Origin: Escherichia coli
GTDB taxonomy: Bacteria > Pseudomonadota > Gammaproteobacteria > Enterobacterales > Enterobacteriaceae
Direction: 5' to 3' (one strand)
Assembly: GCF_050920415.1 (NCBI RefSeq)
Contig: NZ_CP169309.1
DNA length: 64,000 bases
Shown: one piece after another, positions 4,582 through 61,616 of the stretch
Position numbering within the stretch: the first letter of the stretch is position 1
Layout of the letters: every line of letters starts with the position of its first letter
The notes under the pieces: model-generated
What the model was told of the DNA's origin: nothing
The model's database searches: none
What the model saw: only the letters and a program-made list of their open reading frames with translations
Translations under genes and position numbers: made by a program

Positions 4582-5502
4582 ATGAGCACCTTAGGTCATC
4601 AATACGATAACTCACTGGTTTCCAACGCCTTTGGTTTTTTACGCCTGCCGATGAACTTCCAGCCGTATGACAGCGATGCTGACTGGGTAATTACCGGCGT
4701 GCCGTTCGATATGGCTACTTCCGGTCGTGCGGGTGGACGCCACGGTCCGGCGGCGATCCGTCAGGTTTCAACAAATCTGGCCTGGGAACACAACCGCTTC
4801 CCGTGGAATTTCGACATGCGCGAGCGTCTGAACGTGGTGGACTGCGGCGATCTGGTGTATGCCTTCGGCGATGCTCGTGAGATGAGCGAGAAGCTGCAGG
4901 CGCATGCCGAAAAGCTGCTGGCTGCCGGTAAGCGTATGCTCTCCTTCGGTGGTGACCACTTTGTTACCCTGCCGCTGCTGCGTGCTCATGCGAAGCATTT
5001 CGGCAAAATGGCGCTGGTACACTTTGACGCCCACACCGATACCTATGCGAACGGTTGTGAATTTGACCACGGCACTATGTTCTATACCGCGCCGAAAGAA
5101 GGTCTGATCGACCCGAATCACTCCGTACAGATTGGTATTCGTACCGAGTTTGATAAAGACAACGGCTTTACCGTACTGGACGCCTGCCAGGTGAACGATC
5201 GCAGCGTGGATGACGTTATCGCCCAGGTGAAACAGATTGTAGGTGATATGCCAGTTTACCTGACCTTTGATATCGACTGCCTGGATCCTGCTTTCGCGCC
5301 GGGAACGGGTACACCGGTGATTGGCGGTCTGACCTCCGATCGCGCCATTAAACTGGTACGCGGCCTGAAAGATCTCAACATCGTTGGGATGGACGTAGTG
5401 GAAGTGGCTCCGGCATACGATCAGTCGGAAATCACCGCTCTGGCAGCAGCGACGCTGGCGCTGGAGATGCTGTATATTCAGGCGGCGAAAAAGGGCGAGT
5501 AA
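4582..5502 (+). CDS. speB: agmatinase (306 aa)
   Basis: ORF track; arginase-family protein at expected position after speA. Confidence 0.95.
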
Positions 5503-8776: not shown

Positions 8777-8810
8777 AAGATCGTGCAAATTCAATATATT
8801 GCAGGAAGTA

Positions 8811-8841
<31 letters not shown>

Positions 8842-20681: not shown

Positions 20682-20779
20682 GCCTGATGCGCTACGCTTA
20701 TCAGGCCTACACGTATCCTGCAATATATTGAATTTGCAGGTTTTTGTAGGCTGGATAAGGCGTTAAAGCCGCATCCAGT
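20682..20779. repeat. BIME: REP - L motif - inverted REP; contains an unoccupied IS621-type target ATCAGGC-CT-AC at ~20700-20710
   Basis: gcctgatgcgctacgcttatcaggcctac + cctgcaatatattgaatttgcagg + tgtaggctggataaggcg...; same arrangement as the site occupied by the IS at 8814-10094. Confidence 0.75.
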
Positions 20780-33839: not shown

Positions 33840-33990
33840 AAAGCCCTCACCGAAGCGAGGGCTTGAAGGAGAAGGGTTATGATGCGACTCGTCATCATAC
33901 TGATTGTACTGTTACTCATAAGTTTCCCAGCTTATTAACAGTCAGTCACAGGGGAGGAGCAATCCTCCCTTACCCTTACTCACTAAATTA
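33840..33990 (-). ncRNA. sibC: Sib-type antisense sRNA (antitoxin) overlapping ibsC; ends approximate
   Basis: Established arrangement for Ibs/Sib loci; hairpins flank the ibs ORF on both sides. Confidence 0.45.
33879..33938 (+). CDS. ibsC: type I toxin Ibs, 19-aa hydrophobic peptide
   Basis: Manual translation MMRLVIILIVLLLISFPAY; below ORF-track size cut-off. Confidence 0.65.
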   Translation: MMRLVIILIVLLLISFPAY

Positions 33991-34038
33991 GGTCAAAGAA
34001 TCAACGATGTCAATCAGGGCGATGCAGGTGTGTCGCCC

Positions 34039-34659: not shown

Positions 34660-34845
34660 AGGGAATCTCCGAGATGCCGCCGCAGGCTGTAACCCTTGAA
34701 CCCTTGGTTCAAGGTGAATGTGTCGTCACAGTTTTAAGGCTTCTCGGACGGACCGAGCATGCTCACCAACCGCGGAGCGCCACATTCTTGTGGTATGAAA
34801 TATCGGCTCAGGGGACTGGCCCGCTTGCGAACATCTCAGAGAAAT
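34660..34845 (-). ncRNA. ssrS: 6S RNA
   Basis: Reverse complement reads atttctctgagatgttcgcaagcgggccagtcccctgagccgatatttcatacc...ggagattccct, matching my recollection of E. coli 6S RNA. Confidence 0.9.
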
Positions 34846-47470: not shown

Positions 47471-48133
<663 letters not shown>

Positions 48134-48144
48134 TTGGTGCGCCG

Positions 48145-48310
<166 letters not shown>

Positions 48311-48328
48311 CTGATGCGATACAGAGAT

Positions 48329-49309
48329 TTACTCTTCGAGCGAATAGGGCAGCGGCTCGATATGCAATGTATTCGCATCGTCACGCACGCGGAAGATGCT
48401 GTCCGGTTCCATATCGTTATTCATGACGACCTGTACCACGACCTGACCATCTTCCAGTTTTACCGCAGCCAGCACCGTACCGGTACGACGCCAGTTCTCG
48501 CCCATTTTCAGCTCTAAATCTTCACCCGCTTCCGGCAGTCGGCTGGCGCTACCTGCCAGCAGCCAGAGGGCACGTTTGTTGGCACCGCGGAATTTAGCCC
48601 GTGCCACCATCTCTTGTCCGGTATAGCAGCCTTTTTTAAAGCTGATGCCGCCCAACGCCTGGAGGTTGGTCGCCTGTGGGATAAACTGCCCGCTGTTGGC
48701 GGCATCAATCACCGGAAAACCCGCTTCAATGTTTAATGCCAGCCACTGTTGGCTATTGTTCAGTTCCGCTTCACCGCGCAGTTTATCGGTCAGCGTATTG
48801 GCGGTAGCTTCATCGGTTACGATCAGGAAACGTTCTGCCGGGTGTTCAAACCATAGCAAAGTGGTCGCGCCTTCTTTAACTACCTGTTTTTCTTTCGTAG
48901 GCAGTTCACTAAAGAGATTTGCCAGCGCGGCGCGTGCCTGAAAACCGGCAACACCAAGCAGCACACGTTCATCGTCTGGCGCGATGGTCACTTTAGAGAA
49001 CACCGCATATTTTTTCAGTTCAGTCAGTTGCGACTCGCGCACGCTGCGCCGTTCAATCCACGCAAAGCCGTCGCCGTCGCGGAACAGACGTAAATTGCTC
49101 CACATTTTACCTTTGGCGTCGCAATGGGCGGCGAGCAGGTGCTGATCTTCTGTCATCTGGCTGACATCTGCTGTCACCTGACCCTGCATATATTTTTCGC
49201 TGTCCGTGCCAGTAATGGTGGCAAGCGCCCAGTCATCAAGCGTCATCAGCGTCAGCGGTAAACGGGCAGAAGCCGTAGGCTGACGGGGAGGAAAAGGTGT
49301 AAAAGCCAT
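48329..49309 (-). CDS. ygfZ: tRNA-modifying / Fe-S cluster repair folate-binding protein (326 aa)
   Basis: ORF 48329-49375 trimmed to ATG giving [19 protein letters not shown]. Confidence 0.85.
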
Positions 49310-49548
49310 AATGGAGTCCTGTTTTACAAACGGCGTATTTATGACTAATGGTAAAAGAGCTATGAGGCAATGCAAGTGCTTTCACTACGCGATCTGTGCC
49401 TTCTGATATGCTTTGCGAGGCGACTTCCAAAAAAATGAAGCCCTTGAAATATTGTGGGTTAATTTCGCGATCGCGATTGTGTTTACTGATATTCCCGCAA
49501 AAGAAGTCGAAAAACACGTTACAATAGCCTGGTACTGGATTTTCGTGA

Positions 49549-50215
<667 letters not shown>

Positions 50216-50254
50216 AGATGACGGCAAAGCCTGTGTGCTAAGCCGTCAGTGACA

Positions 50255-50776
50255 TCAGGCGTAATGCTCTGCCATTTCGTTGAGGATTTGCTCGCACCAG
50301 TTCTGAATACGCTCGTCGCTAAGGTCATACTGGTTAGTTTCGTCCAGCGCCAGACCCACGAACAGTTGCCCGTCAGCAATCACCGGTTTCGGGCTGGTAA
50401 ACTCATATCCTTCCGTTGGCCAGTAGCCGACGAACTTCACGCCTTTGGTCGAGAGTTTGTCATGCAGCATGCCGAGCGCATCGAGGAACCACTCGCCATA
50501 CCCCAGTTGATCGCCAAGCCCATACAGCGCAACAATTTTACCTTCGAGGTTCAGGTCGTCGAGCTGATCCCAGACGGCTTCCCAGTCTTCCTGGATTTCG
50601 CCAAAATCCCAGGTCGGGATGCCCAGAATGAGCACATCGTACTGCTCCATTAATTTCGGGGAATCGTCCTTGAGGTTATGTAAGGTCACCAGTTCTGGGC
50701 CGATAATATCGCGGATTTTTTCTGCCGCCATTTCGGTGTAACAGGTGCTGGAACCGTAAAAAAGACCCATATTCAT
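50255..50776 (-). CDS. fldB: flavodoxin 2 (173 aa)
   Basis: ORF track. Confidence 0.9.
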
Positions 50777-50887
50777 AACGTAAGCTTCTCGATTCTGCTG
50801 TGGCTTTTGCGGCTAGTGTATCAGAATCGCTTTAGTCACGGCACAATAAGGCATAATGGATCAAATGAGTGACCATAAGGGGCGCAA

Positions 50888-51784
50888 GTGAAACAGGATC
50901 TGGCACGCATCGAGCAGTTTCTTGATGCTCTGTGGCTGGAAAAAAATCTGGCTGAAAATACGTTGAACGCATACCGTCGCGATCTGTCAATGATGGTGGA
51001 GTGGTTGCATCACCGCGGGTTGACGCTGGCGACGGCGCAAAGTGACGATTTGCAGGCATTACTGGCAGAACGGCTGGAGGGTGGGTATAAAGCCACCAGC
51101 TCAGCGCGTTTGCTGAGCGCAGTGCGCCGATTGTTCCAGTATCTTTATCGCGAAAAGTTTCGTGAAGACGATCCCAGCGCGCATCTCGCTTCGCCGAAAT
51201 TGCCCCAGCGTTTGCCAAAAGATTTAAGCGAAGCGCAGGTCGAACGATTATTACAGGCACCATTAATTGATCAGCCACTGGAGCTGCGCGATAAAGCCAT
51301 GCTTGAAGTGTTGTATGCTACCGGGCTGCGAGTCTCTGAACTGGTCGGGCTGACAATGAGTGATATCAGCCTGCGTCAGGGCGTAGTGCGGGTCATTGGT
51401 AAAGGCAACAAAGAACGCCTTGTGCCGTTAGGTGAAGAGGCGGTTTACTGGCTGGAAACTTATCTGGAACACGGGCGACCGTGGTTGCTAAACGGTGTGT
51501 CAATTGACGTGTTGTTTCCCAGTCAGCGCGCGCAGCAGATGACGAGACAAACCTTCTGGCACCGCATTAAACATTATGCTGTGCTGGCGGGTATCGACAG
51601 CGAAAAGCTGTCACCGCATGTGTTGCGTCACGCTTTTGCCACTCATTTATTAAATCATGGTGCGGATTTACGCGTGGTGCAGATGCTACTGGGCCACAGC
51701 GATCTCTCCACCACGCAAATTTATACGCATGTCGCTACCGAGCGTCTGCGGCAACTTCATCAACAGCATCACCCGCGGGCGTGA
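50888..51784 (+). CDS. xerD: site-specific tyrosine recombinase XerD (298 aa)
   Basis: ORF track; GTG start. Confidence 0.95.
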   Translation: MKQDLARIEQFLDALWLEKNLAENTLNAYRRDLSMMVEWLHHRGLTLATAQSDDLQALLAERLEGGYKATSSARLLSAVRRLFQYLYREKFREDDPSAHLASPKLPQRLPKDLSEAQVERLLQAPLIDQPLELRDKAMLEVLYATGLRVSELVGLTMSDISLRQGVVRVIGKGNKERLVPLGEEAVYWLETYLEHGRPWLLNGVSIDVLFPSQRAQQMTRQTFWHRIKHYAVLAGIDSEKLSPHVLRHAFATHLLNHGADLRVVQMLLGHSDLSTTQIYTHVATERLRQLHQQHHPRA

Positions 51785-51808
51785 TGTCTGAAAAGAACGG
51801 GAAGATTT

Positions 51809-52519
51809 ATGAAGAAAGGTTTTATGTTATTTACGTTGTTGGCGGCGTTTTCTGGTTTTGCTCAGGCTGATGACGCGGCAATTCAACAAACGTTAGCCAA
51901 AATGGGCATCAAAAGCAGTGATATTCAGCCTGCGCCCGTGGCTGGTATGAAGACAGTTCTGACTAACAGCGGTGTGTTGTACATCACTGATGATGGTAAA
52001 CATATCATTCAGGGACCAATGTATGACGTTAGCGGAACGACTCCGGTCAATGTCACTAATAAGATGTTGTTAAAGCAGCTGAACGCGCTTGAAAACGAGA
52101 TGATCGTTTATAAAGCGCCGCAGGAAAAACACGTCATTACCGTGTTTACTGATATTACCTGTGGTTACTGCCACAAACTGCATGAGCAAATGGCAGACTA
52201 CAACGCGCTGGGGATCACCGTGCGTTATCTTGCTTTCCCTCGCCAGGGGCTGGAGAGCCAGGCTGAGCAACAAATGAAAGCCATCTGGTGTGCGAAAGAT
52301 AAAAAGAAAGCGTTTGATGATGTGATGGCGGGTAAAGCTGCCACTCCGGCAAGTTGCGATATCGATATTGCCGATCATTACGCACTTGGCGTCCAGCTTG
52401 GCGTTAGTGGCACTCCGGCAATTGTGCTGAGCAATGGCACACTTGTTCCGGGTTACCAGCCGCCGAAAGAGATGAAAGAATTCCTCGACGAACACCAAAA
52501 AATGACCAGCGGTAAATAA
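51809..52519 (+). CDS. dsbC: thiol:disulfide interchange protein DsbC (236 aa)
   Basis: ORF track; CGYC active site. Confidence 0.95.
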   Translation: MKKGFMLFTLLAAFSGFAQADDAAIQQTLAKMGIKSSDIQPAPVAGMKTVLTNSGVLYITDDGKHIIQGPMYDVSGTTPVNVTNKMLLKQLNALENEMIVYKAPQEKHVITVFTDITCGYCHKLHEQMADYNALGITVRYLAFPRQGLESQAEQQMKAIWCAKDKKKAFDDVMAGKAATPASCDIDIADHYALGVQLGVSGTPAIVLSNGTLVPGYQPPKEMKEFLDEHQKMTSGK

Positions 52520-52524
52520 TTCGC

Positions 52525-54258
52525 GTGAAACAACAGATACAACTTCGTCGCCGTGAAGTCGATGAAACGGCAGACTTGCCCGCTGAATTGCCTCCCTTGC
52601 TGCGCCGTTTATATGCCAGCCGGGGAGTACGCAGTGCGCAAGAACTGGAACGTAGTGTAAAAGGTATGCTGCCCTGGCAGCAACTGAGCGGCGTCGAAAA
52701 GGCCGTTGAGATCCTTTACAACGCTTTTCGCGAAGGAACGCGGATTATGGTGGTCGGTGACTTCGACGCCGACGGTGCCACCAGCACGGCTCTAAGCGTG
52801 CTGGCGATGCGCTCGCTTGGTTGCAGCAATATCGACTACCTGGTACCAAACCGTTTCGAAGACGGTTACGGCTTAAGCCCGGAAGTGGTCGATCAGGCCC
52901 ATGCCCGTGGCGCGCAGTTAATTGTCACGGTGGATAACGGCATTTCCTCCCATGCGGGGGTTGAACATGCTCGATCGTTGGGCATTCCGGTTATTGTTAC
53001 CGATCACCATTTGCCGGGCGAAACATTACCCGCGGCGGAAGCGATCATTAACCCTAACTTGCGCGACTGCAATTTCCCGTCGAAATCACTGGCAGGCGTG
53101 GGGGTGGCGTTTTATCTGATGCTGGCGCTGCGCACCTTTTTGCGCGATCAGGGCTGGTTTGATGAGCGCGGCATCGCAATTCCTAACCTGGCAGAACTGC
53201 TGGATCTGGTCGCGTTGGGGACAGTGGCGGACGTCGTGCCGCTGGATGCTAATAATCGCATTCTGACCTGGCAGGGGATGAGTCGCATCCGTGCCGGAAA
53301 GTGCCGTCCAGGGATTAAAGCGTTGCTGGAAGTGGCCAACCGCGATGCGCAAAAACTCGCCGCCAGCGATTTAGGTTTTGCGCTGGGGCCACGTCTCAAT
53401 GCAGCCGGGAGACTGGATGATATGTCCGTTGGTGTGGCGCTGTTGCTGTGCGACAACATCGGCGAAGCGCGAGTACTGGCAAATGAACTCGATGCGCTAA
53501 ACCAGACGCGAAAAGAGATCGAACAGGGAATGCAGGTTGAAGCCCTGACCCTGTGCGAGAAACTGGAGCGCAGCCGCGACACGCTACCCGGCGGGCTGGC
53601 AATGTATCACCCGGAATGGCATCAGGGCGTTGTCGGTATTCTGGCTTCGCGTATTAAAGAGCGTTTTCACCGTCCGGTTATCGCTTTTGCGCCTGCGGGT
53701 GACGGTACGCTGAAAGGTTCCGGTCGCTCCATTCAGGGGCTGCATATGCGTGATGCGCTGGAGCGGCTAGACACACTCTACCCCGGCATGATGCTGAAGT
53801 TTGGCGGTCATGCGATGGCGGCAGGCCTGTCGCTGGAAGAGGATAAATTCGAACTCTTTCAGCAACGGTTTGGCGAACTGGTTACTGAGTGGCTGGACCC
53901 TTCGCTATTGCAAGGCGAAGTGGTGTCAGACGGTCCGCTAAGCCCAGCCGAAATGACCATGGAAGTGGCGCAGCTGCTGCGCGATGCTGGCCCGTGGGGG
54001 CAGATGTTCCCGGAGCCGCTGTTTGACGGTCATTTCCGTCTGCTGCAACAGCGACTGGTGGGTGAACGTCATTTGAAAGTCATGGTCGAACCGGTCGGCG
54101 GCGGTCCGCTGCTGGACGGTATTGCTTTTAATGTCGATACCGCCCTCTGGCCGGATAACGGCGTGCGCGAAGTGCAACTGGCTTACAAGCTGGATATCAA
54201 CGAGTTTCGTGGCAACCGAAGCCTGCAAATTATCATCGACAATATCTGGCCAATTTAG
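52525..54258 (+). CDS. recJ: single-stranded-DNA-specific exonuclease RecJ (577 aa)
   Basis: ORF track; GTG start. Confidence 0.95.
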   Translation: MKQQIQLRRREVDETADLPAELPPLLRRLYASRGVRSAQELERSVKGMLPWQQLSGVEKAVEILYNAFREGTRIMVVGDFDADGATSTALSVLAMRSLGCSNIDYLVPNRFEDGYGLSPEVVDQAHARGAQLIVTVDNGISSHAGVEHARSLGIPVIVTDHHLPGETLPAAEAIINPNLRDCNFPSKSLAGVGVAFYLMLALRTFLRDQGWFDERGIAIPNLAELLDLVALGTVADVVPLDANNRILTWQGMSRIRAGKCRPGIKALLEVANRDAQKLAASDLGFALGPRLNAAGRLDDMSVGVALLLCDNIGEARVLANELDALNQTRKEIEQGMQVEALTLCEKLERSRDTLPGGLAMYHPEWHQGVVGILASRIKERFHRPVIAFAPAGDGTLKGSGRSIQGLHMRDALERLDTLYPGMMLKFGGHAMAAGLSLEEDKFELFQQRFGELVTEWLDPSLLQGEVVSDGPLSPAEMTMEVAQLLRDAGPWGQMFPEPLFDGHFRLLQQRLVGERHLKVMVEPVGGGPLLDGIAFNVDTALWPDNGVREVQLAYKLDINEFRGNRSLQIIIDNIWPI

Positions 54259-54348
54259 CGTCATATTATCTATAAAAAAGAGCGTGGATTCGGTACAATC
54301 CCGCTCTTATCACCGCATTTTGACTAGCTCAATAAAAGAAATCAGACC

Positions 54349-55447
54349 ATGTTTGAAATTAATCCGGTAAATAATCGCATTCAGGACCTCACGGAACGCT
54401 CCGACGTTCTTAGGGGGTATCTTTGACTACGACGCCAAGAAAGAGCGTCTGGAAGAAGTAAACGCCGAGCTGGAACAGCCGGATGTCTGGAACGAACCCG
54501 AACGCGCACAGGCGCTGGGTAAAGAGCGTTCCTCCCTCGAAGCCGTTGTCGACACCCTCGACCAAATGAAACAGGGGCTGGAAGATGTTTCTGGTCTGCT
54601 GGAGCTGGCTGTAGAAGCTGACGACGAAGAAACCTTTAACGAAGCCGTTGCTGAACTCGACGCCCTGGAAGAAAAACTGGCGCAGCTTGAGTTCCGTCGT
54701 ATGTTCTCTGGCGAATATGATAGCGCCGACTGCTACCTCGATATTCAGGCAGGTTCTGGCGGTACGGAAGCACAGGACTGGGCGAGCATGCTTGAGCGTA
54801 TGTATCTGCGCTGGGCTGAATCGCGTGGTTTCAAAACTGAAATCATCGAAGAGTCGGAAGGTGAAGTGGCGGGTATTAAATCCGTGACTATCAAAATCTC
54901 CGGCGATTACGCTTACGGCTGGCTGCGTACAGAAACCGGCGTTCACCGCCTGGTGCGCAAGAGCCCGTTTGACTCCGGCGGTCGTCGCCACACGTCGTTC
55001 AGCTCCGCGTTTGTTTACCCGGAAGTCGATGATGATATCGATATCGAAATCAATCCGGCGGATCTGCGCATCGACGTTTATCGCGCATCCGGCGCGGGTG
55101 GTCAGCACGTTAACCGTACCGAATCTGCGGTGCGTATTACTCACATCCCAACCGGGATTGTGACCCAATGCCAGAACGACCGTTCCCAGCACAAGAACAA
55201 AGACCAGGCCATGAAGCAGATGAAAGCGAAGCTTTATGAACTGGAGATGCAGAAGAAAAATGCCGAGAAACAGGCGATGGAAGATAACAAATCTGATATC
55301 GGCTGGGGCAGCCAGATTCGTTCTTATGTCCTTGATGACTCCCGCATTAAAGATCTGCGCACCGGGGTAGAAACCCGCAACACGCAGGCAGTGCTGGACG
55401 GCAGCCTGGATCAATTTATCGAAGCAAGTTTGAAAGCAGGGTTATGA
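54349..55447 (+). CDS. prfB: peptide chain release factor 2, expressed via programmed +1 ribosomal frameshift
   Basis: Frame 1 from ATG 54349 runs 25 codons to in-frame UGA at 54424-54426; body ORF 54566-55447 is in the +1 frame; SPSGGR and GGQ motifs. Confidence 0.95.
54412..54427 (+). promoter_or_regulatory. prfB: prfB frameshift site: SD-like AGGGGG + slippery CUU UGA C
   Basis: tagggggtatctttgac read directly. Confidence 0.9.
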
Positions 55448-55456
55448 GGAACCAAC

Positions 55457-56974
55457 ATGTCTGAACAACACGCACAGGGCGCTGACGCGGTAGTCGATCT
55501 TAATAATGAGCTGAAAACGCGTCGTGAGAAGCTGACGAACCTGCGTGAGCAGGGGATTGCCTTCCCGAACGATTTTCGTCGCGATCATACCTCTGACCAA
55601 TTGCACGCAGAATTCGACGGCAAAGAAAACGAAGAACTGGAAGCGCTGAACATCGAAGTTGCCGTTGCTGGCCGCATGATGACCCGTCGTATTATGGGTA
55701 AAGCCTCCTTCGTTACTCTGCAGGATGTCGGTGGTCGCATTCAGCTGTATGTGGCTCGTGACGATCTGCCGGAAGGTGTTTATAACGATCAATTCAAAAA
55801 ATGGGATCTCGGCGATATCCTCGGCGCGAAAGGTAAACTGTTCAAAACCAAAACTGGCGAACTGTCGATCCATTGCACCGAGCTGCGTCTGCTGACCAAA
55901 GCACTGCGTCCGCTGCCGGACAAATTCCACGGTTTGCAGGATCAGGAAGCGCGCTATCGTCAGCGTTATCTGGATCTCATTTCTAACGATGAATCCCGCA
56001 ACACCTTTAAAGTGCGTTCGCAGATCCTCTCTGGCATTCGCCAGTTCATGGTGAATCGTGGCTTTATGGAAGTTGAAACGCCGATGATGCAGGTGATCCC
56101 AGGCGGCGCGGCGGCGCGTCCGTTTATCACCCATCACAATGCGCTGGATCTCGACATGTACCTGCGTATCGCGCCGGAACTGTACCTCAAGCGCCTGGTG
56201 GTTGGTGGCTTCGAGCGTGTATTCGAAATCAACCGTAACTTCCGTAACGAAGGTATCTCCGTACGTCATAACCCAGAGTTCACCATGATGGAACTCTATA
56301 TGGCTTACGCGGATTACAAAGATCTGATCGAGCTGACCGAATCGCTGTTCCGTACTCTGGCACAGGATATTCTCGGTAAGACCGAAGTGACCTACGGCGA
56401 CGTGACGCTGGACTTCGGTAAACCGTTCGAAAAACTGACCATGCGTGAAGCGATCAAGAAATATCGCCCGGAAACCGACATGGCGGATCTGGACAACTTC
56501 GACTCTGCGAAAGCGATTGCTGAATCTATCGGCATCCATGTTGAGAAGAGCTGGGGTCTGGGCCGTATCGTTACCGAGATCTTCGAAGAAGTGGCAGAAG
56601 CACATCTGATTCAGCCGACCTTCATTACTGAATATCCGGCAGAAGTTTCTCCGCTGGCGCGTCGTAATGACGTTAACCCGGAAATCACTGACCGCTTTGA
56701 GTTCTTCATTGGTGGTCGTGAAATCGGTAACGGTTTTAGCGAGCTGAATGACGCGGAAGATCAGGCGCAGCGCTTCCTGGATCAGGTTGCCGCGAAAGAC
56801 GCAGGCGACGACGAAGCGATGTTCTACGACGAAGATTACGTCACCGCACTGGAACACGGCTTACCGCCGACAGCAGGTCTGGGAATTGGTATCGACCGTA
56901 TGGTAATGCTGTTCACCAACAGCCATACCATCCGTGACGTTATTCTGTTCCCGGCGATGCGTCCGGTGAAATAA
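55457..56974 (+). CDS. lysS: lysyl-tRNA synthetase (505 aa)
   Basis: ORF track; starts 10 nt after prfB stop. Confidence 0.95.
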
Positions 56975-56993
56975 GCATTACGTTATGCTCACA

Positions 56994-57019
56994 ACCCCGG
57001 CAAATGTCGGGGTTTTTTA
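56994..57019. terminator. bidirectional terminator between lysS and convergent idi
   Basis: ccccggcaaatgtcgggg hairpin + tttttt; overlaps idi stop. Confidence 0.7.
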
Positions 57020-57565
57020 ATTGTGCTGCGCGAAAGCAGACAACAATTTTCTTGCTTCACTATTGGCTGCCTGCATCACCATCCACGGGCTGAACGCCCA
57101 CGGCGTGGCATCAATACCGTGTAATACATCTGCTAAATCACACCATTGATAATCCATCACTTCATCATCATTGATCTGTAACGCACTGGTCGTGCGTGCG
57201 GCAAATACCGGACACACTTCATTTTCCACAATGCCACTCGGATCGGTGGCGCGGTAGCGAAAGTCAGGATAGATAGATTCAGGAGGCGTAATTTCCACGC
57301 CAAGCTCATAACGGCAACGGCGGATCACTGCGTCTTCGTTGCTTTCTCCCTGTTGTGGGTGCCCACAAACCGAGTTAGTCCACACGCCAGGCCATGCTTT
57401 TTTGCTCAGTGCGCGGCGGGTAACTAATAATTGCCCCTTGGCATTAAACAGCCAACTGGAGAACGCGAGATGTAAGAGGGTGTCTGCCGTGTGTGCGGCA
57501 TACTTTTCCAGCGTACCCGTGGGAACTCCCTGTGCATTCAATAAAATGACGTGTTCCGTTTGCAT
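57017..57565 (-). CDS. idi: isopentenyl-diphosphate delta-isomerase (182 aa)
   Basis: ORF track; Nudix-like fold motifs. Confidence 0.9.
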
Positions 57566-57813
57566 AATTTCTCACATGTAATTCTAATCACTCATCATTA
57601 TAGATAATTGAAGAGTGAAATGATTAACCAAGTGAGCGTTTATCGACAACCGCCCGTTTTGAGCGGATGTCGACAGGTAAAACCATTTAAAAAAGCAGCA
57701 TCATATATTTGAAGCGACTTTCAATGGCCATTGCAACACAGTCAGAAATGACAGGAATAGAGAGAGTAAAAAGCAACAACAGACTGAATATAGCGCGCAT
57801 TAAAAGATTCATA

Positions 57814-59262
57814 TTATTCTCCATGCTCATTTTTCTTCAGCTTGCGCATCAGAAGCCACATACGTACTGTCCTGACTTTTAAATCTTTATCAGAGACGGA
57901 TTCCTTCACCAGATCAGCATGATGCTGATAGCCATTAAAGAAGACGTTCAGCACAACGGCGCTAAGGGTTGCGAGCATAATGCCGCTATGCAGCAACGGT
58001 TGCAGTACGGCCGGTAACTTAGAAAAGAAATCGTGAGAGAGCGTCGGAGTCATGCCAACGCCGAGACTGATCGCCACAATATAGAGGTTGTAACGGTTAG
58101 TGGTGTAGTTACAGCGCGACAGAATTCGAATCCCCGTCGCCAGTACCATGCCGAACATCACCAGCCCTGCGCCGCCAAGCACAAATTGCGGAATCGAGGC
58201 TACCAGCACCGCCATTTTGGGCACCATGCCAAACATGATTAATATGATCCCCGAAGAAATACACACCCAGCGACTATGAACGCGCGTCACGCTAACCAGG
58301 CCAACGTTTTGAGAAAATGACGTGTGGGGGAAGCTGTTAAACGTTCCGCCTATCATTGTCCCTACACCATCGACACGCAGCCCGCGAATAATATCGTGCG
58401 AAGAGAGTTTACGACCGACTATTTCACCCAGTGCCAGGAACATCCCCATCGACTCGATAAACACGATGATTAACACAGCGGTCATGGTTAGAATAGAAAC
58501 GGGGTCAAATACCGGCATACCAAACGACATTGGGGTGACAATCGCAAACCACGAAGCATCATGTAGCCCGGACAAATTGACTTCATTCATCATCCACGAA
58601 AGTAAAAAGCCAAATACAATCCCCAGTAATACGGCGACGTTGGACATAAATCCTTTCGCATAGCGAGTAATGAGCAAGATAAAAATTAAGACGGCAAAGG
58701 AGATACCTAAATAAACGGGATTACCATATTGCGGATTCCCTTTACCTCCAGCGGCCCAGTCAATACCGACCTGAATAATGCTAAGCCCGATAGAAGTAAT
58801 AACCACACCGGTAACCAGTGGCGGGAATAAAGGCATTAAGCGACCGATAAGTGGTGCTAATAATGTGGTGATAAATCCCGCGGCGATAGTGGCACCAAAT
58901 ATCCCCAGCAGGCCGATATCCGGGTTCATGCCAATGGCTATCATTGGTGTTACAGCAGCAAAGGTTACCGACATAATCACCGGCAGACGGATCCCCATAA
59001 AGCGGCCGATACCGATACATTGTAATAATGTGACGATCCCGCAGCAAAAGAGATCCGAGCTAATGAGCATCGCAATAGCTTCTTTTGAGAGGCCCAGTCG
59101 GTCACCAATCATAAGAGGAACAGCGACTGCACCTGCGTACATTACAAGGACGTGTTGCAGACCGAGTATGATCAGCTTTCCTGGTGATAATATGCGGTCA
59201 ACCTCATCAGTTGGGCGGTCTTGCCCTGAAGATGAGGGAAGTTGGGAATCTATGGCGCTCAT
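57814..59262 (-). CDS. uacT: uric acid/xanthine permease, NCS2 family (482 aa)
   Basis: ORF 57814-59391 trimmed to ATG giving MSAIDSQLPSSSGQ. Confidence 0.85.
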   Translation of the reverse strand: MSAIDSQLPSSSGQDRPTDEVDRILSPGKLIILGLQHVLVMYAGAVAVPLMIGDRLGLSKEAIAMLISSDLFCCGIVTLLQCIGIGRFMGIRLPVIMSVTFAAVTPMIAIGMNPDIGLLGIFGATIAAGFITTLLAPLIGRLMPLFPPLVTGVVITSIGLSIIQVGIDWAAGGKGNPQYGNPVYLGISFAVLIFILLITRYAKGFMSNVAVLLGIVFGFLLSWMMNEVNLSGLHDASWFAIVTPMSFGMPVFDPVSILTMTAVLIIVFIESMGMFLALGEIVGRKLSSHDIIRGLRVDGVGTMIGGTFNSFPHTSFSQNVGLVSVTRVHSRWVCISSGIILIMFGMVPKMAVLVASIPQFVLGGAGLVMFGMVLATGIRILSRCNYTTNRYNLYIVAISLGVGMTPTLSHDFFSKLPAVLQPLLHSGIMLATLSAVVLNVFFNGYQHHADLVKESVSDKDLKVRTVRMWLLMRKLKKNEHGE

Positions 59263-59696
59263 CAGTGTTTCTCCTTTCGCCCGCCAGAGTAAAAAGCAAC
59301 CGTTTACGTTATTGAAACTGTCTAAACATATGCTCGTGGAGTGCCAGTTTTTGCGAGGAAGGGGAGTTAGAGACAGGAATTGCGGAGGCAATCACATAAT
59401 CGTGGTTAAACCACGAAAATGAGAAGAGAACCTGACAATGGAATTATCTGTAATTTTCTCATATTGATATTTCATTAATCATTCTGGCATGTCGCACTCT
59501 CGCATTTAATCGTTTTTATCTGGATAGCGCTCTTTTGGTCGGCAATGTTGAAATAATGAAAGCGGCACAGATTGAGGGGTAATAATTTGAACTTAGTCAC
59601 AAACTTATAATTAAAAAGTCATTCTACCTAATATATGCCCGTTTATTGCATCGCGAACTTTGAGAAGACATAACTCATTAAATGAAAGGGATGCAA

Positions 59697-61616
59697 ATGA
59701 ATAAGTTTATCGCTGCTGAAGCTGCGGAATGTATAGGCTGTCATGCTTGTGAAATTGCCTGTGCGGTGGCACACAATCAAGAAAACTGGCCGCTGAGTCA
59801 CAGTGACTTTCGACCGCGTATCCACGTTGTAGGGAAAGGCCAGGCTGCGAATCCGGTGGCCTGTCATCACTGCAACAATGCTCCTTGCGTTACGGCTTGT
59901 CCGGTTAATGCTCTGACTTTCCAGCCCGATAGCGTACAACTGGACGAGCAAAAATGTATTGGTTGTAAAAGATGCGCAATCGCTTGCCCCTTTGGCGTCG
60001 TTGAGATGGTCGATACGATTGCGCAGAAATGCGACCTTTGTAACCAGCGCAGTTCCGGCACGCAAGCCTGTATTGACGTATGCCCAACACAGGCGTTACG
60101 GCTGATGGACGATAAAGGGTTGCAGCAGATAAAGGTGGCCCGCCAGCGCAAAACGGCAGCAGGAAAAGCGTCATCAGACGCTCAGCCATCTCGCAGTGCA
60201 GCGTTGCTCCCCGTTAACTCGCGTAAAGGCGCAGATAAAATTTCAGCGAGTGAACGGAAAACCCACTTTGGCGAAATTTATTGCGGGCTGGATCCACAAC
60301 AAGCGACTTATGAGAGTGACCGCTGTGTTTATTGCGCCGAAAAAGCTAACTGCAACTGGCATTGCCCGCTGCATAACGCTATTCCGGATTACATCCGTCT
60401 GGTGCAGGAAGGAAAGATTATTGAAGCGGCAGAACTTTGCCACCAGACCAGTTCCTTACCAGAAATCTGCGGCAGGGTATGTCCACAGGACCGTCTTTGT
60501 GAAGGCGCATGTACTTTGAAAGATCACTCTGGCGCAGTCTCTATCGGTAATCTGGAGCGCTACATCACCGATACTGCGTTGGCGATGGGCTGGCGTCCCG
60601 ATGTCAGCATGGTGGTTCCCCGTATCGAAAAAGTGGCGGTGATTGGCGCTGGGCCTGCAGGATTAGGGTGTGCTGATATCTTGGCGCGCGCGGGAGTTCA
60701 GGTTGATGTCTTTGATCGCCATCCAGAAATTGGCGGTATGCTGACTTTTGGCATTCCTCCTTTCAAACTCGATAAAACAGTCTTAAGCCAGCGGCGAGAG
60801 ATATTCACCGCAATGGGAATCGACTTTCATCTCAACTGTGAGATTGGCCGCGATATTACCTTTAGCGATTTAACTTCTGAATATGATGCCGTTTTCATCG
60901 GCGTGGGGACTTACGGGATGATGCGAGCAGATTTGCCGCATGAAGATGCGCCCGGTGTCATTCAGGCTCTACCGTTCCTGACTGCCCATACCCGCCAGCT
61001 CATGGGGTTGCCGGAGTCTGAAGAGTATCCGCTGACGGATGTGGAAGGTAAGCGAGTCGTGGTATTGGGCGGTGGCGATACGACCATGGATTGTTTGCGG
61101 ACTTCCATCCGCCTCAATGCCGCCAGCGTGACCTGCGCGTATCGTCGTGATGAAGTCAGTATGCCGGGCTCGCGCAAAGAGGTGGTCAATGCGCGCGAGG
61201 AAGGTGTCGAGTTTCAGTTCAATGTTCAGCCGCAATATATCGCTTGTGACGAAGATGGGCGTTTAACTGCGGTGGGCCTGATTCGTACAGCCATGGGTGA
61301 GCCGGGGCCGGATGGTCGCCGTCGTCCTCGTCCGGTAGCGGGTTCAGAGTTTGAGCTGCCCGCCGATGTTCTGATTATGGCCTTTGGTTTCCAGGCGCAT
61401 GCCATGCCGTGGTTGCAAGGCAGCGGAATTAAGCTCGATAAATGGGGCCTGATTCAAACCGGGGACGTCGGGTATTTACCCACCCAGACGCATCTGAAAA
61501 AAGTCTTTGCTGGTGGGGATGCAGTTCATGGCGCGGATCTGGTTGTCACTGCAATGGCCGCAGGAAGGCAGGCGGCGCGCGATATGTTAACTCTGTTTGA
61601 TACGAAGGCATCGTGA
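59697..61616 (+). CDS. ygfT: Fe-S/FAD oxidoreductase (GltD-like with N-terminal 4Fe-4S ferredoxin domains) (639 aa)
   Basis: ORF 59682-61616; start at [22 protein letters not shown]; multiple CxxCxxCxxxCP motifs. Confidence 0.85.

Follow-up and report, generated by a model that had tools for sequence, protein, structure and literature searches.

The +1 frameshift of prfB, the gene for the release factor RF2, has been the textbook example of bacterial programmed frameshifting and translational autoregulation since 1985-86. Its motif features and mechanism are set out in PMC12421855, which cites Craigen et al. 1985, Craigen & Caskey 1986 and Weiss et al. 1987/1988, and further Marquez et al. 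2004 and Baranov et al. 2002. The prfB cassettes have been surveyed across Bacteria (Baranov et al. 2002; Prince, Lin & Feaga 2025, PMC12421855), recently in more than 12,000 genomes (PMC12421855). Published shares of genes with the frameshift were ~70% in early samples, 87% of 259 genomes and 64% of 12,753 genomes, and the stop codon at the shift site was TGA in >99% of genomes and never TAG (PMC12421855).

Other programmed frameshifts share some of these features. The E. coli dnaX frameshift likewise uses a Shine-Dalgarno (SD)-like stretch inside the gene, whose pairing with 16S rRNA in the elongating ribosome stimulates the change of frame, but it moves the ribosome by -1 on A AAA AAG, has its SD ~10 nt upstream, needs a downstream stem-loop and possesses no stop-codon sensor, whereas prfB shifts by +1, keeps a 3-nt spacing, employs the stop codon itself as the sensor and has no notable downstream structure. 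The eukaryotic antizyme gene (OAZ) also shifts by +1 at a UGA after a short ORF1 and acts as an autoregulatory sensor of the output of its pathway. Unlike prfB, antizyme senses polyamines, is stimulated by a downstream pseudoknot and by upstream sequence instead of SD:anti-SD pairing, and belongs to an unrelated family.

Here, we analyzed the prfB locus in a 64-kb window of an E. coli chromosome, the window being the whole stretch of 64,000 nucleotides. In comparison with E. coli K-12 and B, the gene, its neighbours (recJ 5', lysS 3'), the 25-codon initial reading frame (ORF0) and the cassette CUU AGGGGG UAU CUU UGA C were the same, and only the strain background differed, with the surrounding 12 kb being ~96.3-96.5% identical to typical E. 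coli. The bacterial prfB consensus was matched in every element, that is, the SD-like AGGGGG, the 3-nt spacer, CTTT, TGA and C. We conclude, with a probability of about 0.97, that the element is the canonical prfB programmed +1 ribosomal frameshift in an E. coli chromosome.

Anatomy of the prfB frameshift site

By direct reading and by script, the prfB initiation frame was found to begin with ATG at 54349-54351 and, after 25 codons, to meet TGA at 54424-54426 as codon 26, exactly where the original prediction had placed an in-frame UGA. The context that it had given for this stop, AGGGGG-uau-CUU-UGA-C at 54412-54427, was correct to the base: AGGGGGTATCTTTGAC occupies 54412-54427 and consists of AGGGGG (54412-54417), TAT (54418-54420), CTT (54421-54423), TGA (54424-54426) and C (54427). 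The features of a prfB shift site, namely an early stop recognisable by RF2, CTT 5' of the stop, an SD-like hexamer and a following C, were all present. The features of the locus, all on the + strand, are as follows.

54349..54423, +: prfB frame-0 segment, ATG and codons 1-25; its product matches residues 1-25 of solved E. coli RF2 exactly, and the RefSeq CDS begins at the same base
54412..54417, +: internal Shine-Dalgarno-like hexamer AGGGGG, 3 nt 5' of CUU and 6 nt 5' of the stop; the literature consensus is AGGGGG
54418..54420, +: UAU (Tyr24) spacer codon, which would be in the E site with CUU in the P site (role from the literature, Marquez et al. 2004)
54421..54424, +: slippery run CUU_U, made up of CUU (Leu25) and the stop's first base; sequence read directly, mechanism from the literature
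54424..54426, +: in-frame UGA, frame-0 codon 26, the RF2-specific stop and putative sensor; sequence read directly
54427..54427, +: C 3' of UGA, giving the weak UGA-C termination context, and third base of GAC (Asp26); sequence read directly
54425..55447, +: prfB +1-frame segment, codons 26-365 and the TGA stop at 55445-55447, assigned by RF2 models and PDB alignment; the RefSeq CDS ends at the same base
55457..56974, +: lysS (lysine-tRNA ligase), 9 nt 3' of prfB, given as context only and outside the frameshift signal
56993..57014, +: GC-rich, terminator-like hairpin with a T run behind it, 3' of lysS, from a consensus scan only

The cassette AGGGGGTATCTTTGAC occurred once in the 64-kb window even when up to 2 mismatches were allowed, and 0.02 matches were expected from dinucleotide-preserving shuffles. 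No continuous ORF ran from 54349, the condition under which the prediction was to be given up; frame 0 stopped at the TGA at 54424-54426 and continued beyond it for 31 further codons, arginine-rich, to another stop. The +1 frame remained free of stops between 54371 and its TGA at 55445-55447, and a script run over this open frame found no ATG, GTG or TTG before 54566, the first start-type codon being the ATG at that position. The mechanical ORF list therefore gave for prfB only a 293-aa ORF (54566..55447), which is the N-terminal truncation that had been predicted for the six-frame ORF. The RF2 body lies in the +1 frame, which lacks a separate initiation codon for it, and the RF2 N terminus comes from frame 0. 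When 54349-54423 and 54425-55447 were joined, with T54424 skipped, the resulting 1098 nt made up 365 codons and a stop. The TGA at 55445-55447 that ends prfB lies within GGTTATGAGGAACCAACATG and is itself RF2-specific.

The spliced product is RF2

The protein translated from the joined segments scored 525.9 bits against NCBIfam TIGR00020 (prfB; cut-off, 370), in an alignment that began at residue 12, and it remained below the cut-offs of the RF1 models (~304-306 versus 400-423 bits) and of prfH (125.5 versus 166.65). The Pfam domains PCRF (207.5 bits) and RF-1 (146 bits) were both detected. E. coli RF2 sequences from PDB aligned with it from residue 1-365 on 1-365, with 364/365 identity to each variant (1gqe and 1ml5), and neither a gap nor a drop in the alignment appeared at the Leu25|Asp26 junction. 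Hence, the check proposed with the original prediction, an alignment of 54349-54423 plus 54425-55447 to RF2, gave an unbroken match, and the placement of the release-factor body in the +1 frame, open to 55447, was borne out by the RF2 models and the PDB alignment alike. The solved E. coli RF2 chains comprise 365 residues and have the N terminus MFEINPV. The recognition tripeptide SPF was found at residues 205-207 (54962-54970), and the catalytic GGQ, the motif for peptidyl-tRNA hydrolysis, at residues 250-252 (55097-55105). Because the frame-0 and +1 parts align continuously to RF2, both halves constitute one RF2. Judged from this sequence alignment, the 25-codon frame-0 leader is the authentic RF2 N terminus and not an unrelated upstream ORF.

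Residue 246 of RF2 is Ala in this strain (GCA, 55085-55087), as in 1gqe and in most non-K-12 strains, versus Thr in the K-12-type PDB sequence 1ml5. Thr246 is a K-12-specific RF2 variant with lower activity.

Conservation of the cassette across species

For comparison across species, one genome per species was scanned for the stretch that encodes the RF2 GGQ loop; this anchor was chosen because selection on the shift motif itself was to be avoided. In the window, the anchor starts 222 codons 3' of Asp26. The scan returned at least 120 loci, skewed toward Gammaproteobacteria. From the 120 loci listed, 37 without SPF and 6 cut by contig ends were left out, leaving 77 scorable RF2 genes. The 37 excluded loci are presumably RF1 or other class-I factors. 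These SPF-less loci (L003, L005, L008 and 34 others) match the GGQ-loop pattern and would have Arg after Asn; in some genomes one lies beside an RF2-type locus, as with L053 and L054 in Pseudidiomarina marina.

Among the matches listed, CTT-TGA was present at the homologous place in 62 of the 77 scorable RF2 genes, and in 59 loci from many genera and phyla the frame-0 stop lay exactly 222 codons 5' of the anchor. Within the 62 CTT-TGA loci, a C followed the stop in 59, NGGRGG stood 3 nt upstream in 59, and the full cassette was complete in 56. When all 73 loci with a frame-0 stop at the shift position were considered, the spacer was TAT in 53/73, the codon before the stop was CTT in 64/73, the stop was TGA in 70 and TAA in 3, and a C came after it in 65/73. 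Approximately 11 sampled genes encoded RF2 in a single frame. These proportions agree with the published survey shares.

Four near-variants occurred in the sample, with CTT-TAA twice, TTT-TGA once and GTT-TGA-T once. The CTT-TAA sites were AGGGGG-TAT-CTT-TAA-C in Thiospirillum jenense (L081) and GGTGGC-TCC-CTT-TAA-C in an Oscillospiraceae metagenome-assembled genome (MAG; L007). The Pantoea sp. Brub symbiont (L026) had AGGGGG-TAT-TTT-TGA-C, and Candidatus Pantoea edessiphila (L033), a reduced insect symbiont, had AGGAGG-TAT-GTT-TGA-T, lacking both CTT and the following C.

At the nucleotide level, third codon positions of the 62 loci held 1.50 bits of information in the five codons before the stop, versus 0.18 bits upstream and 0.38 bits downstream, indicating that the nucleotides are constrained beyond the coding need. 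In an ungapped display of 14 Gammaproteobacteria, the flanks were variable and the 3' end of ORF0, CTT AGGGGG TAT CTT TGA C, was nearly constant; one sequence differed at 2 bases, and in 4 more the sole change was a C in place of the hexamer's first G. This nucleotide-level conservation supports a selected signal. One locus, from a MAG labelled Klebsiella pneumoniae (L044), had a prfB ORF0 (…AERLNAIGGALNNLAGRIGELRRYL) and flanks very unlike those of other Enterobacterales, which suggests that its contig was mis-binned.

Conservation within E. coli and Enterobacterales

The 41-mer at 54400-54440 had seed matches in 5420 of 5426 complete E. coli genomes and was identical in 4410 of them. A megablast seed is a 28-base exact word, and a single mismatch within 54413-54427 would leave no match; given this word requirement, the 5420/5426 matches indicate that the cassette is effectively invariant in E. 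coli. The 1.4-kb prfB region was present as a single copy in 5425 of the 5426 genomes, always under recJ, prfB and lysS. The prfB locus in 5425 genomes versus the 41-mer seed in 5420 leaves a difference of five complete E. coli genomes, in which the frameshift signal or the bases next to it may be altered or wrongly assembled.

Compared with strain STEC383, prfB showed 24 differences in 1099 nt, all of them synonymous and none before 54604, indicating purifying selection on a working prfB; the neighbouring recJ and lysS differed by 4.1% and 3.4%, respectively. The first 255 nt of the gene (54349-54603) were thus identical to STEC383, and the remainder differed by ~2.8%. No differences from E. 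albertii were found in the first 150 nt, and in 6 other Enterobacterales nucleotides 1-150 diverged by 3-7% (12% in one) versus 11-20% in nucleotides 151-750. Taken over Escherichia and the other Enterobacterales, the first ~150 nt of prfB, comprising ORF0 and ~75 nt past the shift, evolved 2- to 3-fold more slowly than the middle of the gene, and this slow tract spans far more sequence than the 16-nt cassette. This tract probably reflects ordinary constraint at the 5' end of a gene, or a recombination tract. That it is instead an additional cis-acting layer, extending beyond the 16-nt cassette and tuning the frameshift, appears unlikely; if true, such a layer might be, for example, a start-to-shift distance governing ribosome queuing and collisions, or an mRNA structure.

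Annotation and genomic context

The best match, NZ_CP169399.1 (strain MFDS1022581), carries in RefSeq a prfB annotated as a two-piece join with the remark "programmed frameshift", and the ends of this feature map exactly to 54349 and 55447. The genes there run xerD-dsbC-recJ-prfB-lysS, and idi lies on the other strand. The protein WP_001701073.1, with the same join annotation, was also found in a genome that is ~96.5% identical.

Positions 48000-60000 of the window were 100.0% identical to MFDS1022581, a strain from animal-source food in South Korea. Identity of the same 12 kb to typical E. coli was as given above, and a value of at least 99% was reached in only 2 of 5426 complete genomes. By these identities, the window appears to represent a divergent lineage of Escherichia, possibly one of the cryptic clades, that is filed under E. 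coli.

Downstream, the prfB stop is overlapped by GAGGA, the ribosome-binding site of lysS, and the lysS start follows 9 nt after that stop; this arrangement suggests translational coupling in a prfB-lysS operon. The hairpin at 56993-57014 is probably the end of the prfB-lysS transcript. A promoter scan of 54000-57200 gave a single weak sigma-70-like hit, fewer than in shuffled sequences, and this hit (54209-54236) falls within the 3' end of recJ.

Proposed mechanism

The anatomy of the site, the identity of its spliced product and the conservation of the cassette at the nucleotide level were established directly. For slippage, SD:anti-SD pairing and dependence on the RF2 level, we infer the course of events from experiments that were published for this same sequence in E. 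coli. Ribosomes would start at ATG 54349 and read 25 codons, which would bring CUU (Leu25) into the P site and UGA-C into the A site. With abundant RF2, termination would occur at the UGA (54424-54426) and a 25-residue peptide would be released. With scarce RF2, the ribosome would pause at the UGA, where RF2 and the frameshift would compete. AGGGGG would then pair with the 16S rRNA anti-SD, the spacing being too tight for the complex to be relaxed, and the strained SD:anti-SD complex would destabilise the E-site tRNA and lead to its release. The peptidyl-tRNA-Leu would re-pair from CUU to UUU, so that base 54424 would be read twice in pairing and skipped as coding. Subsequently, GAC (Asp26) would enter the A site and the +1 frame would be translated to the 365-residue RF2. 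In this manner, RF2 would limit its own synthesis. The original prediction had called this the classic autoregulatory frameshift, a description that the cassette, the product and RefSeq support; its "autoregulatory" part rests on the published E. coli experiments, in which frameshift efficiency on the identical sequence went up as RF2 fell (Craigen & Caskey 1986 and later work, PMC12421855).

When the whole window was scanned with Rfam at gathering thresholds, no rRNA genes were found and no family covered the prfB site. Rfam contains no family for this signal, and a match at the site was not expected because the signal is not structure-based. Between the E. coli anti-SD CCUCC and GGGGG, four G-C pairs and one G-U pair would form. 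Folding of 54395-54494 revealed no distinctive structure (z = -1.37; 18 of 200 shuffles folded at least as well), which fits an SD-driven, structure-independent mechanism. A tRNA scan found no tRNA genes in the window, and the slipping tRNA-Leu is therefore encoded outside it. The Rfam matches that did occur were a Sib antitoxin RNA (33863-34013, -), 6S RNA (ssrS; 34662-34845, -), naRNA4 (48150-48227, -) and two ES036 (REP-like) elements (20703-20745, -, and 8777-8820, +), all unrelated to the prfB site.

Alternative explanations

On its face the prfB ORF is interrupted, and the frame break could be a real 1-nt insertion that makes a pseudogene, or a sequencing or assembly error, so that the gene would be either inactive or truly continuous. 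An extra base in a short T run such as CTTTG is indeed a common type of sequencing error. However, 5420-5425 of 5426 complete E. coli genomes, which were assembled independently, showed the same interruption, and it recurred at the homologous position in the 59 loci from many genera and phyla. It was always accompanied by the SD-like hexamer at fixed spacing and by the C, a combination that random errors would not give. Moreover, all 24 differences from STEC383 were synonymous, and RF2 is essential. The recurrence across assemblies and phyla, the accessory elements and the purely synonymous divergence led us to exclude an error or a pseudogene, for which the remaining probability is negligible. 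Independent initiation at ATG 54566 would make RF2 a 293-aa protein and the 25-codon ORF a separate leader peptide. Short regulatory upstream ORFs do exist, and 54566..55447 is the longest conventional ORF, but the +1 frame from 54425 to 54565 encodes RF2 residues 26-72 and frame 0 encodes residues 1-25, both identical to the solved protein. The prfB family model, furthermore, aligns from residue 12 of the spliced protein, the solved chains have 365 residues starting with MFEINPV, and the 20 nt 5' of 54566 (TTGTCGACACCCTCGACCAA) contain no SD-like purine run. Internal initiation is thus highly improbable, and it was excluded on account of the RF2 residues 1-72 encoded upstream and of the lack of an SD before the ATG.

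Other routes than ribosomal +1 slippage would be readthrough or recoding of the UGA in frame 0 (as Trp, as Sec or by a near-cognate tRNA), or restoration of the frame in the RNA by transcriptional slippage. UGA-C is a leaky stop context, and transcriptional slippage is known in bacteria, where it takes place at longer homopolymer runs. Against these routes, frame 0 contains only 31 more codons past the UGA, without similarity to RF2, and no distinctive downstream RNA structure was predicted in 54395-54494. The T run here has three bases, which is too short for known transcriptional slippage, and the Leu25-Asp26 sequence of the published protein fits +1 re-pairing on CUU_U. We accordingly consider that these routes have only a very small chance of being correct. 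The sequence holds nothing against the canonical prfB +1 frameshift.

Significance for annotation

The prfB frameshift in this chromosome is already known; it is neither a new member nor a variant and is identical to that of E. coli K-12 and B, so that its scientific novelty is none. Its practical value lies in the correct annotation of prfB, which is join(54349..54423,54425..55447), and neither the 293-aa ORF 54566..55447 nor a pseudogene.
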